Assembly (NCBI RefSeq): GCF_003334355.1
Contig: NZ_QOWP01000071.1
Length of the DNA: 2,799 bases
Reading direction: 5' to 3' (one strand)
Source of the DNA: Escherichia coli
GTDB lineage: Bacteria; Pseudomonadota; Gammaproteobacteria; Enterobacterales; Enterobacteriaceae
Made by a program: the position numbers and the translations under genes. Every line of letters begins with the position of its first letter. Position 1 is the stretch's first letter. Shown here in pieces: positions 1 through 2,799 of this stretch. The notes beneath the pieces are model-generated. The model was not told where the DNA came from and did not search any database. It saw only the letters and a list, made by a program, of their open reading frames with translations.

Positions 1-62
1 AATCGGTGGAGCTGCATGACAAAGTCATCGGGCATTATCTGAACATAAAACACTATCAATAA
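1..62 (+). CDS. insB: IS1 transposase InsB, C-terminal fragment (5' part lies outside the window)
   Basis: In-frame codons 3..59 followed by TAA at 60-62; peptide [20 protein letters not shown] matches the remembered InsB C-terminus. No start codon in window. Confidence 0.85.
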   Translation, partial: SVELHDKVIGHYLNIKHYQ

Positions 63-77
63 GTTGGAGTCATTACC
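55..77 (+). repeat. IS1 terminal inverted repeat (IRR), about 23 bp
   Basis: atcaataagttggagtcattacc is the reverse complement of the canonical IS1 end GGTAATGACTCCAACTTATTGAT; an exact inverted copy lies at 2669-2691. Confidence 0.9.
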
Positions 78-275
78 AGAAAATCGTTGTCCGTTAACTT
101 CCATATTAGCATAGAGATAACGCTTACATTTCATTAATGCCCATGGTAAATAGATACCTAGCGTTATAATCGTTAACAACACATTCACCACACAAATAAG
201 AAAATATCTCTCACCTGTACCATGAAAAACAAACGAATGGGACGGAACATCCATTTCATTAATAACTTGAGCCAT
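78..275 (-). pseudogene. yjgN: 5' fragment (66 codons) of an inner-membrane protein gene, probably yjgN (DUF898-type), truncated by the IS1 insertion at 77/78
   Basis: Minus-strand ATG at 273-275 opens a frame MAQVINEMDVPSHSFVFHGTGERYFLICVVNVLLTIITLGIYLPWALMKCKRYLYANMEVNGQRFS with a clear hydrophobic helix (YFLICVVNVLLTIITLGIYLPWAL). It runs without a stop straight into the IS1 repeat (..RFS|[13 protein letters not shown]..). Position divergent from yjgM fits the K-12 order argI-rraB-yjgM-yjgN as I recall it. Missing from the supplied ORF track, presumably because it has no stop in the window. Confidence 0.6.
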
Positions 276-285
276 AAAAATTCCC

Positions 286-311
286 TGAATTAAAAAATTC
301 ATTGATATAAT
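286..311 (+). promoter_or_regulatory. Candidate sigma70 extended -10 element (TGaTATAAT, 303-311) directly preceded by a TGAAT-N6-ATTCA palindrome (286-301) in the yjgN/yjgM divergent control region
   Basis: Exact TG-n-TATAAT at 303-311 on the + strand, oriented towards yjgM; no good -35, as is common for extended -10 promoters. A second perfect TATAAT lies at 437-442, 25 bp upstream of the yjgM ATG. Assignment is by sequence pattern only. Confidence 0.3.
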
Positions 312-467
312 TTATAGATACAGACAGTAAAATGTTCTGCCACGTTACAATACTCTTATCAGTAATAGGCTAGCAAAAACTTTATTGCTTTATAAGACGC
401 TTGCGCACGTAAGAAGAGAGTGGTATTAAACAAATGTATAATTACTTTATTTTTATTGGGTTAAACT

Positions 468-971
468 ATGAATAACATTGCGCCGCAATCACCTGTAATG
501 CGTCGCCTGACGTTGCAGGATAATCCTGCTATCGCCCGCGTCATTCGTCAGGTATCCGCCGAATACGGTCTTACCGCTGATAAAGGCTACACCGTCGCCG
601 ATCCGAATCTTGACGAGCTGTATCAAGTGTATAGTCAGCCTGGTCATGCATATTGGGTGGTTGAGTACGAGGGTGAAGTGGTCGGCGGCGGTGGGATTGC
701 GCCATTAGCAGGTAGTGAATCGGACATTTGCGAACTGCAAAAGATGTATTTTCTTCCGGCTATTCGCGGTAAAGGGCTGGCGAAAAAACTGGCCTTAATG
801 GCGATGGAGCAAGCACGAGAGATGGGCTTCAAACGCTGCTATCTGGAAACGACCGCTTTTTTAAAGGAAGCCATTGCGCTTTATGAGCATTTGGGCTTTG
901 AGCATATCGACTATGCGCTTGGCTGCACGGGCCATGTCGATTGTGAAGTGCGGATGCTACGCGAACTCTAA
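468..971 (+). CDS. yjgM: GNAT-family N-acetyltransferase (YjgM-like), 167 aa
   Basis: Complete ORF ATG 468 to TAA 969-971. Contains the GNAT acetyl-CoA-binding signature R-x-x-G-x-G ([10 protein letters not shown]) and the overall motif order expected for a GNAT fold. Length and position next to rraB match E. coli yjgM as recalled. Confidence 0.9.
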
Positions 972-972
972 A

Positions 973-1006
973 AAAATGCCCGCTAGTGTGTGCTATCGGG
1001 CATTTT
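973..1006. terminator. Bidirectional intrinsic terminator between convergent yjgM and rraB
   Basis: Perfect inverted repeat AAAATGCCCG (973-982) / CGGGCATTTT (997-1006) around a 14-nt loop; the A-run on one side and T-run on the other give a U-tail in both transcription directions. Lies in the 45-bp gap between the two stop codons (971 and 1017). Confidence 0.7.
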
Positions 1007-1016
1007 AATCAATTAA

Positions 1017-1433
1017 TTAGTGGCGAACCCCGTCATCGTCTTCATCGACAAAATCTTCATCGTCGCCGTCTTCGCCATTGGGATCTTCAAAGTAAGTGCC
1101 CCAACCGTCGTACTCAACGTCAAATTTCTCCGCCAGCGTCATCAGTTGTTCAACCTGGGCATCGATCAGATCGGCATTCAACGCGCACTCGCTGAGGATG
1201 TCGCAGCAAATCACGATATCACCATCTTCAACTTCCAGCTCTTCTGGATCGGTCACTTCGTAACCGAGTTTAAACGCTTCAACTGCTGCTTTTTCCAGGG
1301 TTTCCAGATCGTCTGCGGAAAGATGGTGTTCGATGGTGTACAGCGCGTCCGGATCGCTGCCATCTTCCAGTAATTCTTCAATAATCAAACGTGTTTCTTC
1401 ACGCTGTTCTTCCAGTTGTTCCGGGTTTGCCAT
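1017..1433 (-). CDS. rraB: RraB, regulator of ribonuclease (RNase E) activity B; highly acidic 138-aa protein
   Basis: Complete minus-strand ORF (ATG at 1431-1433, TAA at 1017-1019) encoding [29 protein letters not shown]...[15 protein letters not shown], very rich in D/E. Preceded on the minus strand by AAGAGGAA, a good SD, about 6 nt from the ATG. Recognised as RraB (YjgD) by sequence and by position next to argI. Confidence 0.93.
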
Positions 1434-1530
1434 GGCTCATTCCTCTTAATGTCCTGCCGATACTCTTATTGTCACACACCACTGACATTGCCTCCACCTT
1501 TGTGACAAAGATTTATGCTTTAGACTTGCA

Positions 1531-1569
1531 AATGAATAATCATCCATATAAATTGAATTTTAATTCATT
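1531..1569 (+). promoter_or_regulatory. ArgR operator: two tandem ARG boxes overlapping the argI promoter
   Basis: Box 2 at 1552-1569 (ATTGAATTTTAATTCATT) fits the 18-bp ARG-box consensus TNTGAATWWWWATTCANW almost perfectly. Box 1 at 1531-1548 (AATGAATAATCATCCATA) is a weaker match, separated by 3 bp. This is the classic arrangement for arginine-regulon operators; a TTGCAA -35-like hexamer lies at 1526-1531. Confidence 0.85.
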
Positions 1570-1583
1570 GAGGCGTTAGCCAC

Positions 1584-1589
1584 AGGAGG
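1584..1589 (+). promoter_or_regulatory. Shine-Dalgarno sequence of argI
   Basis: AGGAGG at 1584-1589, 5 nt upstream of the ATG at 1595. Confidence 0.8.
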
Positions 1590-1594
1590 GATCT

Positions 1595-2599
1595 ATGTCC
1601 GGGTTTTATCATAAGCATTTCCTGAAATTACTCGATTTCACGCCAGCTGAACTCAACAGCCTGTTGCAGTTAGCCGCGAAGCTGAAAGCCGATAAGAAAA
1701 GCGGTAAAGAAGAAGCCAAACTCACTGGTAAAAACATCGCGCTCATCTTCGAAAAAGACTCGACTCGTACCCGATGCTCTTTCGAAGTTGCCGCATATGA
1801 CCAGGGTGCTCGTGTTACTTATCTCGGCCCAAGCGGCAGCCAGATTGGTCATAAAGAGTCGATTAAAGACACTGCCCGCGTGCTTGGTCGCATGTATGAC
1901 GGTATTCAGTATCGCGGCTATGGTCAGGAGATTGTCGAAACACTGGCGGAATACGCTGGCGTGCCGGTATGGAACGGCCTGACCAATGAGTTTCACCCCA
2001 CGCAGCTGCTGGCGGATCTTCTCACCATGCAGGAGCATTTGCCCGGCAAAGCATTCAACGAAATGACGCTGGTCTATGCAGGTGACGCGCGTAACAACAT
2101 GGGAAACTCGATGCTCGAAGCTGCGGCGCTTACCGGTCTGGATTTGCGTCTGGTCGCGCCACAGGCATGCTGGCCGGAAGCTGCGCTGGTTACGGAATGC
2201 CGCGCCCTGGCACAGCAAAATGGCGGGAATATTACGCTGACGGAAGATGTAGCCAAAGGAGTAGAAGGTGCTGACTTTATCTATACCGATGTATGGGTGT
2301 CGATGGGGGAAGCAAAAGAGAAATGGGCGGAACGGATTGCATTGCTGCGTGATTATCAGGTGAATAACAAGATGATGCAGTTGACCGGTAACCCGGAGGT
2401 CAAATTCCTCCACTGCCTGCCCGCGTTTCATGACGACCAGACGACGCTTGGTAAGAAAATGGCGGAAGAGTTTGGCCTACATGGCGGAATGGAAGTGACT
2501 GATGAGGTCTTCGAATCTGCCGCCAGCATTGTTTTTGATCAGGCGGAAAACCGCATGCATACCATCAAAGCGGTGATGGTCGCGACGCTCAGTAAATAA
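1595..2599 (+). CDS. argI: Ornithine carbamoyltransferase (anabolic OTCase), 334 aa
   Basis: Complete ORF with the OTCase catalytic signatures: STRTR carbamoyl-phosphate motif ([12 protein letters not shown]), HPTQ, DVWVSMG and HCLP ornithine-binding motifs. N-terminus [15 protein letters not shown] matches my recollection of E. coli ArgI rather than ArgF; upstream ARG boxes and rraB/yjgM synteny support argI. Confidence 0.95.
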
Positions 2600-2615
2600 T
2601 TGATATCGCTATAAA

Positions 2616-2657
2616 GATGCCGGGAAATACAAAAACATCCCGGCATCACATTATTTT
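2616..2657 (+). terminator. Rho-independent terminator of argI
   Basis: Perfect 10-bp stem GATGCCGGGA (2616-2625) / TCCCGGCATC (2638-2647) with a 12-nt loop, followed by a T-rich tract (ACATTATTTTATG), 17 bp after the argI stop. Confidence 0.8.
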
Positions 2658-2668
2658 ATGCAGTGATA

Positions 2669-2691
2669 GGTAATGACTCCAACTTATTGAT
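2669..2691 (-). repeat. IS1 terminal inverted repeat (IRR)
   Basis: ggtaatgactccaacttattgat, identical to the reverse complement of 55-77. Confidence 0.9.
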
Positions 2692-2799
2692 AGTGTTTTA
2701 TGTTCAGATAATGTCCGATGATTTTGTCATGCAGCTCCACCGATTTTGAGAACGACAGCGACTTCCGTCCCAGCCGTGCCAGGTGCTGCCTCAGATTCA
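2684..2799 (-). CDS. insB: IS1 transposase InsB, C-terminal fragment (variant allele; 5' part outside the window)
   Basis: Minus-strand frame ends ...[16 protein letters not shown] with the stop at 2684-2686; it differs from the left copy by V->I plus one synonymous change. Confidence 0.85.

Follow-up and report, generated by a model that had tools for sequence, protein, structure and literature searches.

Composite transposons formed by IS1 are known with the two copies in direct orientation, as in Tn9, and with the copies inverted, as in Tn1681, and in E. coli K-12 the argF gene also lies in an IS1-flanked segment. Another comparator is the closed chromosome of E. coli strain I3 (NZ_CP195969.1), which has the order valS-IS1-yjgN-yjgM-rraB-argI-IS1-yjgL; the block is the same as here, it sits at its native locus between a pair of inverted IS1 elements, and the right-hand target is shared. 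The window that we analyzed is a 2,799-nt stretch of E. coli DNA and is the entire contig QOWP01000071.1 (GCA_003334355.1; L036, 100% identity). Inward-facing IS1 IRR ends lie at positions 1-77 (plus strand) and 2669-2799 (minus strand) with 2,591 bp between them, as an earlier note on this DNA had placed them, correctly to the base. Our analysis indicates that the contig probably records two separate IS1 insertions at favoured targets of the native argI locus, and not a newly mobilised cassette; on this view the double-IS1 arrangement is ordinary.

The segment between the IS1 ends contains three intact genes. The first, yjgM (468-971, plus strand), encodes a GNAT-family N-acetyltransferase, assigned from its ORF, the RefSeq annotation of identical loci and weak GNAT family matches. 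It converges on rraB (1017-1433, minus strand), the ribonuclease E inhibitor gene, which matches the NCBIfam equivalog NF008393 with 214 bits against a cutoff of 82, and the hairpin between the two genes (973-1006; 14-nt arms, 93% complementary, 6-nt loop, with A and T runs alongside) is probably a bidirectional terminator. The third gene, argI (1595-2599, plus strand), encodes a 334-aa ornithine carbamoyltransferase and matches NCBIfam NF009213 over its full length with 753 bits. Its operator (1531-1569, plus strand) consists of two ARG boxes found by pattern match, one at 1531-1548 with three mismatches and an exact one at 1552-1569, scored against TNTGAATWWWWATTCANW, the established ARG-box consensus of ArgR operators. 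The argI intrinsic terminator (2617-2648, plus strand) is a 10-bp G+C-rich hairpin, GAUGCCGGGA...UCCCGGCAUC, followed by a U-rich tract. A simple terminator scan missed it because its loop is 12 nt, and direct folding caught it, with an RNA fold of -23.2 kcal/mol (z = -5.5) that none of 200 shuffles equalled in stability. The ORFs, the annotation of homologous loci, the ARG boxes and the hairpin together confirm the earlier description of yjgM, rraB and argI as complete, the last with its operator and terminator, and argI is predicted from its sequence to stay ArgR-regulated.

This core is native E. coli chromosome. It differs from the corresponding sequence of G3/10 and strain 582 by 3 mismatches in 2,591, and in both of these its neighbours are valS/yjgN on one side and yjgL/tabA on the other. 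The core is chromosomal and single-copy in 5,426 of 5,426 complete E. coli genomes, and a search of plasmids for a mobilised copy returned only mislabelled pieces of chromosome, for example one carrying lptG to mgtA in native order. The argI gene has 99.9% nucleotide identity to native argI loci, compared with about 79% to K-12 argF (F' records), and on these figures an identity as argF was rejected. An OTCase paralogue at a non-native, IS1-flanked position was likewise ruled out by the native synteny rraB-argI-yjgL, with rraB upstream of argI and yjgL downstream. The proposal of an argI-side parallel to the acquisition of argF, or of a composite transposon, finds no support: the junctions are native, the identity to argI loci is 99.9%, the copy is single and chromosomal, and the left junction is that of a simple insertion.

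The left IS1 end (1-77, plus strand) comprises the final 77 nt of the element, which are the 3' end of insB plus the IRR, with the terminus ...GGAGTCATTACC; it is of the canonical IS1A type and matches the terminal 77 nt of full-length 768-bp IS1 (L003, L004 and L037) at 77 of 77 positions. The right end (2669-2799, minus strand) is in the opposite orientation and is the reverse complement of the last 131 nt of IS1, IRR plus insB 3' end, beginning GGTAATGACTCC..., with 129 of 131 positions identical (98.5%); the annotation of L036 calls a 37-aa DDE_Tnp_IS1 fragment here. The terminal inverted repeat of IS1 (IRR, GGTAATGACTCCAACTTATTGAT...) is present at both window ends by match to the IS1 of closed genomes, and a repeat finder pairs 1-77 with 2669-2745 as inverted arms of 77 nt, 97% complementary and 2,591 nt apart. 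The right copy carries C-to-T changes at 2714 (IS position 46) and 2722 (IS position 54), so that the two ends differ at 2 of 77 positions and are therefore not fresh copies of each other. In a sister contig (L010), which has 2 mismatches to the window, the structure is the same and the change at IS position 46 is shared. The exact 131-mer of the right end occurs in no complete E. coli genome, and the two changes are never found together in any of these genomes. Assembly broke off 77 and 131 nt into the IS1 copies because the assembler was unable to cross the repeated element, and the stub lengths (131 being 54 + 77) fit an assembler with k=77 halting at a repeat. A complete IS1 has 768 bp and encodes insA and insB, with InsAB' made by frameshift; we infer that both copies, of which the window shows the terminal 77 and 131 nt, are full length.

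The left IS1 cuts yjgN, a DUF898 membrane-protein gene. Its first 66 codons remain (78-275, minus strand), identified by alignment to the full 398-aa YjgN, and in translation they read through into the IRR to give a 92-aa peptide; RefSeq labels the corresponding loci of E47, D72 and MLI023K1 as a DUF898 family protein with a missing C-terminus. IS1 generates 8-9-bp duplications (PMC12428005, PMC12065110), and of the 9-bp target duplication belonging to the left IS1 the window retains the inner copy, AGAAAATCG (78-86). This sequence is single in native loci and flanks IS1 on both sides in the closed E47 and D72 genomes and the 4.76-Mb contig L004, all three of which have a full IS1 at this site, with the remaining yjgN and valS beyond it, and a simple-insertion junction base-identical to that of the window. 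The earlier note had proposed a search for a direct repeat at each IS1 and for native outer flanks, and for the left IS1 both are found in these related genomes. The same site and orientation recur in backgrounds 97.6-98.9% identical to the window, and IS1 in the opposite orientation with the same AGAAAATCG repeat is found in MLI023K1 and others. A Shigella-like genome or a Shigella origin need not be assumed, as E47 and D72 are ordinary E. coli with the same left insertion. A look-up of the C-terminal 303-aa fragment of YjgN, for a contig on the outer left side, returned only unrelated yjgN disruptions, and look-ups of the 75- and 76-aa partial products in run assemblies, for co-occurrence of the junctions, returned other lineages only.

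On the right, the IS1 target is CAGTGATA (2661-2668), about 20 nt beyond the argI terminator and within the last codons of yjgL (minus strand; native ...RPITA*), where the uninterrupted native sequence reads ...GCAGTGATA joined to GGTCTATTC (L011). Both IS1 targets lie in DNA of 30-39% G+C. The right site is also a recurrent target, being used in I3, L037 and L038; in the case of I3 the very same base is occupied by a different IS1 variant, flanked by a 9-bp repeat of its own, TAGTAATAG, and in E24/E25 an IS1 lies 49 bp from the site. A synthetic query of inner plus outer right junction found no complete E. coli genome with IS1 at this exact site and orientation, and a search of these genomes with the whole window found no collinear double-IS1 structure.

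Independent insertion of the two elements, one of the readings offered in the earlier note, is best supported because both sites are recurrent hotspots, the IS1 ends are non-identical, and the I3 analogue has a 9-bp repeat for each IS copy. On this reading, an E. coli-type chromosome with the native order valS-yjgN-yjgM-rraB-argI-yjgL would have taken two IS1 insertions in opposite orientations, the first into codon 66 of yjgN at the AT-rich target AGAAAATCG and the second into the last codons of yjgL at the AT-rich target CAGTGATA. The outcome would be a knocked-out yjgN and a YjgL with an altered C-terminus, while yjgM, rraB and argI with its ArgR operator and terminator would be left untouched. 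In the source genome, the outer left junction would be expected to run from the 3' part of yjgN as ...AGAAAATCG joined to GGTGATGCTGCC (IRL), or in its longer form ...CCATAAGAAAATCG joined to GGTGATGCTGCC, and the outer right junction would have the IRL GGCAGCATCACC joined either to GCAGTGATAGGTCT or to (G)CAGTGATAGGTCT, followed by yjgL.

The right-hand side could instead be more complex, with an IRR on both sides of it, either as an IS1-X-IS1 composite with the 8-bp duplication CAGTGATA or as back-to-back IS1 in a duplicated hotspot, so that the window stub is only one edge of the element. This suggestion, which we regard as unlikely, draws on L037 and L038, which are 99.93-99.95% identical to the nearest relatives of the window and which end in yjgL...CCTATCACTG joined to GGTAATGACTCC, that is, with an IRR bordering, from the yjgL side, the 8 bp that in the window abut an IRR. 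Read the other way, this junction, in a contig type (L037) common to 6 samples, is GGAGTCATTACC joined to CAGTGATAGGTCT, and it misfits one simple insertion if the genome type is shared with the window. In addition, the read-through product expected of an IRL outer junction with a 9-bp repeat (YjgL plus VMLPTY) is unrecorded for the two closest yjgL alleles, in an exact look-up that fails on any residue difference, and the version of this look-up with an 8-bp repeat returned IRR-type junctions only. Against this, I3 has a plain single IS1 at that very base with its IRR on the yjgL side and its IRL on the argI side, and because such a plain IS1 exists, the simplest view of L037 and L038 is that they represent other strains in which the IS1 is turned round, which on the argI side would give argI...CAGTGATAG joined to GGTGATGCTGCC (IRL). 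They could also be IS1-mediated deletions of the yjgN'-argI segment. A further reading, in which either the argI/yjgL site is an IS1-bounded composite with IRR on both sides, an 8-bp duplication and cargo, or yjgN'-argI forms an IS1 composite or invertible module that is active in this clade and has L037 and L038 as its excision or deletion product, appears to us very unlikely.

A single event could also have made both ends, if the yjgN copy of IS1 had transposed replicatively into the argI/yjgL target, which would generate a second, inverted copy and at the same time flip the yjgN'-argI segment. Such a duplicative inversion is consistent with the geometry, since IRR ends face inward and IRL ends would point outward, and, reasoning from the Shapiro model, it would leave the same four junctions as two independent insertions. 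IS1 transposase-mediated rearrangements are documented (PMC12065110), and the left IS1 alone is widespread and may have been the parent. However, a fresh replicative copy should start out identical and the two IRR ends differ; the C-to-T change at position 46 is common to the window and L010 and is therefore old; and other IS1 variants strike the right site independently in other strains, so that no special mechanism is needed. We therefore consider this event decidedly improbable, and two separate insertions remain our preferred account.

The idea that IS1-yjgN'-yjgM-rraB-argI-IS1 is, or has been, mobile as one piece, and that the contig stems from a copy that landed on a plasmid or elsewhere outside the native locus, as an argI analogue of the K-12 argF segment, has in its favour a 2.6-kb passenger between two inverted IS1 ends and the classical precedents of Tn9, Tn1681 and the argF segment. 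Inverted IS1 pairs also mobilise chromosomal genes in the laboratory (PMC12065110), but the idea is scarcely credible for this contig, given that all the complete genomes have one copy of the block, on the chromosome, with no genuine plasmid copy found, the left inner junction matches in-situ simple insertions exactly, the right one falls at the native argI/yjgL boundary, vertical inheritance has been long enough for 2 substitutions between the two assemblies, and the OTCase gene, with about 79% identity to argF, is native argI.

The structural premise of the suggestion that the segment is a substrate for inversion or deletion holds, with inverted IS1 copies 2.6 kb apart; as with any inverted IS pair, RecA might invert the 2.6-kb stretch between them or, in rare cases, the two might transpose together as a composite. 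Neither the contig nor any of the four expected junctions would differ with the orientation of the segment, and such inversions are undetectable by short reads (PMC12065110). IS1 insertions that knock out yjgN and clip yjgL belong to the routine wear of E. coli and Shigella genomes and carry small biological weight, and argI stays intact. Of practical use are the two targets: IS1 strikes AGAAAATCG in yjgN and, where argI meets yjgL, CAGTGATA(G) reproducibly, in both orientations and in divergent lineages, and these hotspots might be of use as markers in typing or as natural cases for the study of IS1 target choice. Short contigs that end in IS stubs resemble IS-bracketed cassettes but are mostly assembly breaks, and are therefore not to be scored as composite transposons without their outer junctions.

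Compared with known systems, the window resembles Tn9, Tn1681 and the argF segment in having a passenger between two IS1 copies, and in a passenger that includes an OTCase gene, but its passenger is the native argI neighbourhood at native junctions, with no second locus or plasmid copy found. Segments bracketed by IS copies that are inverted or deleted in a RecA-dependent manner require the substrate that the window has, inverted copies (presumed to be about 768 bp each) 2.6 kb apart, although a short-read contig looks alike in either state. The I3 chromosome is unlike the window in that its IS1 variant is about 90% identical to canonical IS1, its IRL ends point inward, and its left IS1 lies near the 3' end of yjgN, leaving that gene almost intact; each of its IS1 copies has a 9-bp repeat, TAGTAATAG on the right and CTTTATCTG at the second, inverted IS1 beyond yjgN. 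Finally, the simple chromosomal insertions of IS1A type (768 bp, 8-9-bp duplication) differ from the window in that the right copy has the two C-to-T changes and the visible IS1 amounts to 77 and 131 nt, but the window ends are identical or nearly identical to canonical IS1, AT-rich targets are reused in both orientations as at the window sites, and the left junction is base-identical to that of such insertions.

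The 2,799-nt contig QOWP01000071.1 of the draft assembly GCA_003334355.1 matches the window with 100% identity and has on record the 91-residue partial product predicted at the left edge; the window is thus an entire draft contig. Its sole long inverted repeat, detected with a repeat finder, pairs 1-77 with 2669-2745 (97% complementary, with a spacing of 2,591 nt), and each arm is an IS1 end proximal to the right terminal inverted repeat (IRR). The left stub (1-77) is identical to the final 77 nt of complete IS1 elements of 768 bp (…AAATCGGTGGAGCTGCATGAC…GGAGTCATTACC), and the right stub (2669-2799) carries the final 131 nt in reverse complement (GGTAATGACTCC…). 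The intervening core contains codons 1-66 of yjgN (78-275, minus strand), yjgM (468-971), rraB (1017-1433, minus strand), two ARG boxes (1531-1569), and argI (1595-2599) with its terminator hairpin (2617-2648). Where yjgM and rraB converge, a further hairpin (973-1006), with a 14-bp stem and A and T runs on its flanks, is likely to be a bidirectional terminator for both. Repeat finding, ORFs and comparison with full-length IS1 bear out the coordinates and gene calls of the earlier note. The stub lengths are consistent with an assembly break inside a repeat, 77 nt being a common assembler k and 131 nt being 54 + 77, where 54 is the last base separating this IS1 copy from canonical IS1. A 2,902-nt contig from a sister assembly (L010, GCA_003293365.1) has the same structure with 2 mismatches and likewise ends within IS1, and the IS1-bracketed arrangement is therefore real and inherited. 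The outer flanks that the earlier note proposed to examine are absent from the record.

The 2,591-bp core differs by 3 mismatches from E. coli G3/10 and strain 582, in which it is flanked by valS-yjgN on one side and yjgL-tabA-bdcR on the other. It is present in 5,426/5,426 complete E. coli genomes, at a median of 1 copy and essentially always on the chromosome. Matches in the plasmid collection are to megabase "plasmids" or to pieces such as NZ_AP023207.1 (L031, the 93.8-kb "plasmid" pMTY18781-2), which has lptG-pepA-valS-yjgN-argI-pyrBI-mgtA in chromosomal order and no replicon type; this record is probably a mislabelled chromosome fragment, and the same probably applies to several megabase-sized PLSDB entries filed as plasmids. 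The best supported reading is that IS1 inserted twice, independently, at hotspots of this native locus. The earlier note gave this as a fallback, and it is favored by the reuse of both sites, the non-identical IS1 ends, and a resolved analogue in E. coli I3; a Shigella-like genome need not be invoked. The two separate insertions would have inactivated yjgN and, on the right, altered the YjgL C terminus, while leaving yjgM, rraB, and argI intact.

IS1 is 768 bp long, ends in IRL and IRR (the left and right terminal repeats), and generates 8- or 9-bp target duplications (PMC12428005, PMC12065110). The uninterrupted native yjgN sequence at the left site is …CCATAAGAAAATCGTTGTCC…, and in a 4.76-Mb contig (L004) and the closed chromosomes of E47 and D72, IS1 lies at exactly the left point of the window and in the same orientation, with AGAAAATCG on either side and, past the IS1, the remaining 1,008 nt of yjgN followed by valS, the classical pattern of a simple insertion that duplicates 9 bp of target. 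Copies of this target are found at 78-86 in the window and in pairs in the comparison loci L057 (6301-6309 and 7078-7086) and L002 (2992-3000 and 3769-3777). The window-type left junction is widespread among run assemblies (80 index blocks) with cores only 97.6-98.9% identical to the window. In MLI023K1/K2, TOE17, HS-01, and others, IS1 is inserted the other way round and flanked by the same 9-bp duplication, and about 22 more complete genomes have IS1 at other yjgN positions. The target AGAAAATCG, in a region of 32-39% G+C, is a recurrent IS1 hotspot.

Several of these loci have features of their own. D72 has a second IS1 in direct orientation (L058 5186-5953), also within yjgN and 356 nt upstream of the copy at the hotspot. 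The flanks of this second IS1 (…ggcataattc and cagaaccacag…) have no matching target duplication, suggesting an IS1-associated deletion. In GCA_900094025.1 (L005 10199-11010), the hotspot IS1 leads not into the rest of yjgN but into a sulfatase gene and a further IS, and its outer end is GGTAATGGTGCC rather than canonical IRL, so that this outer flank is rearranged. HS-01 (L001 3001-3559) has at the same site ~560 nt of badly eroded IS1 sequence, riddled with substitutions and indels; this remnant is either an old copy in decay or the product of poor local assembly quality.

At the right site, the native sequence runs from …TTTTATGCAGTGATA into GGTCTATTC…, and the break lies in the final yjgL codons (…RPITA*, minus strand), ~20 nt past the argI terminator stem. 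No complete E. coli genome has IS1 here in the orientation of the window. The closed I3 genome has an IS1 variant inserted at the same base, with IRL facing argI and IRR facing yjgL; its 9-bp repeat, TAGTAATAG, is the allelic form of CAGTGATAG in I3. A second, inverted IS1 close to the yjgN 3' end of I3 has the repeat CTTTATCTG. These two copies, a divergent variant about 90% identical to canonical IS1 (L039 7104-7871 and 11410-12177, NZ_CP195969.1), bracket argI-rraB-yjgM-yjgN. With the same block at the native locus and its own 9-bp repeat for each inverted copy, I3 is a fully resolved analogue of the window, formed by two independent insertions with no inversion. IS1 lies 49 bp deeper in yjgL in E24/E25, and at other yjgL positions in several more strains. 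In relatives, yjgL (downstream of window position 2668; for example, L011 11062-12657) is AT-rich with a weak SopA-like match, and it is unusually polymorphic among E. coli, with 527-555-aa forms, split 76+447-aa forms, and alleles frameshifted or IS1-interrupted at several positions.

In laboratory evolution, IS1 pairs can cause inversions and deletions (PMC12065110). The segment may have undergone RecA-mediated or duplicative inversion. The stub-segment-stub contig and all four junctions are identical for the native and inverted orientations, and short-read contigs cannot reveal such inversions (PMC12065110).

For the outer junctions, the draft-assembly collection is indexed by exact protein sequence only, and junction products were predicted and then looked up. 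For the two closest yjgL alleles, exact look-up of the product expected when YjgL reads through a 9-bp repeat into IRL (…RPITAVMLPTY) returned no record. The product of the 8-bp version (…RPITG, equal for IRL or IRR) is recorded in L037 (GCA_049383385.1) and L038 (SRR7904918), where an IRR end adjoins yjgL, …CCTATCACTG meeting GGTAATGACTCC, at contig ends (L037 11577-11718; L038 6565-6611). The junction falls at the 8 bp CAGTGATA, which also adjoin the argI-side IRR in the window. Both contigs are 99.93-99.95% identical to the nearest relatives of the window and belong to its clade. A single IS1 cannot present an IRR end to each side of its target. The simplest reading of the two contigs is that they come from other strains, in which IS1 has the I3 orientation; alternatively, they could have arisen by IS1-mediated deletion of yjgN'-argI, joining the IRR of the yjgN copy to the right target. 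If they share the genome type of the window, the argI/yjgL site would be occupied by a more complex arrangement of IS1. Such an IRR-IRR structure, or an active module, would be of modest interest, and we consider it improbable.

A right IS1 newly copied from the left element by replicative transposition would be expected to be identical to it, and the ends differ. The left end is canonical over the comparable 77 nt, whereas the right differs by two C->T changes. The one at IS position 46 (window 2714) is shared with L010, and the one at position 54 (window 2722) is a polymorphism known from IS1SD and from some copies of IS1A. Read on the insB strand, one of the two is silent (GGG->GGA) and the other is Val->Ile near the InsB C terminus. 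None of the complete E. coli genomes searched has both changes together. Since T46 is common to both assemblies, the right copy is older than their split, since which they have accumulated 2 substitutions in 2.8 kb.

The composite transposon proposed in the earlier note finds no support, as the core lies at its native locus. Likewise unsupported is the suggested argI-side counterpart of the K-12 argF segment, which is flanked by IS1 and, like Tn1681, is a classical example of genes lying between IS1 copies: the K-12 paralogue argF (on F' records) matches at only about 79%, and the gene is the native argI and does not represent an argF-like acquisition. The finding is ordinary, already-known biology. 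IS1 pairs, inverted ones included, can mobilise intervening chromosomal genes as composite transposons in laboratory evolution, and Tn9 is cited as the classical example (PMC12065110); with its IS1-pair architecture, the window is a potential composite-transposon or rearrangement substrate. It shares that paired architecture with IS1 composite transposons but differs from them in that, across the complete E. coli genomes and the plasmid collection, its core was found at no second or non-native site. I3 likewise has this gene block at its native position with an inverted IS1 pair around it, but there the IRL ends face inward, and in the window the IRR ends do.
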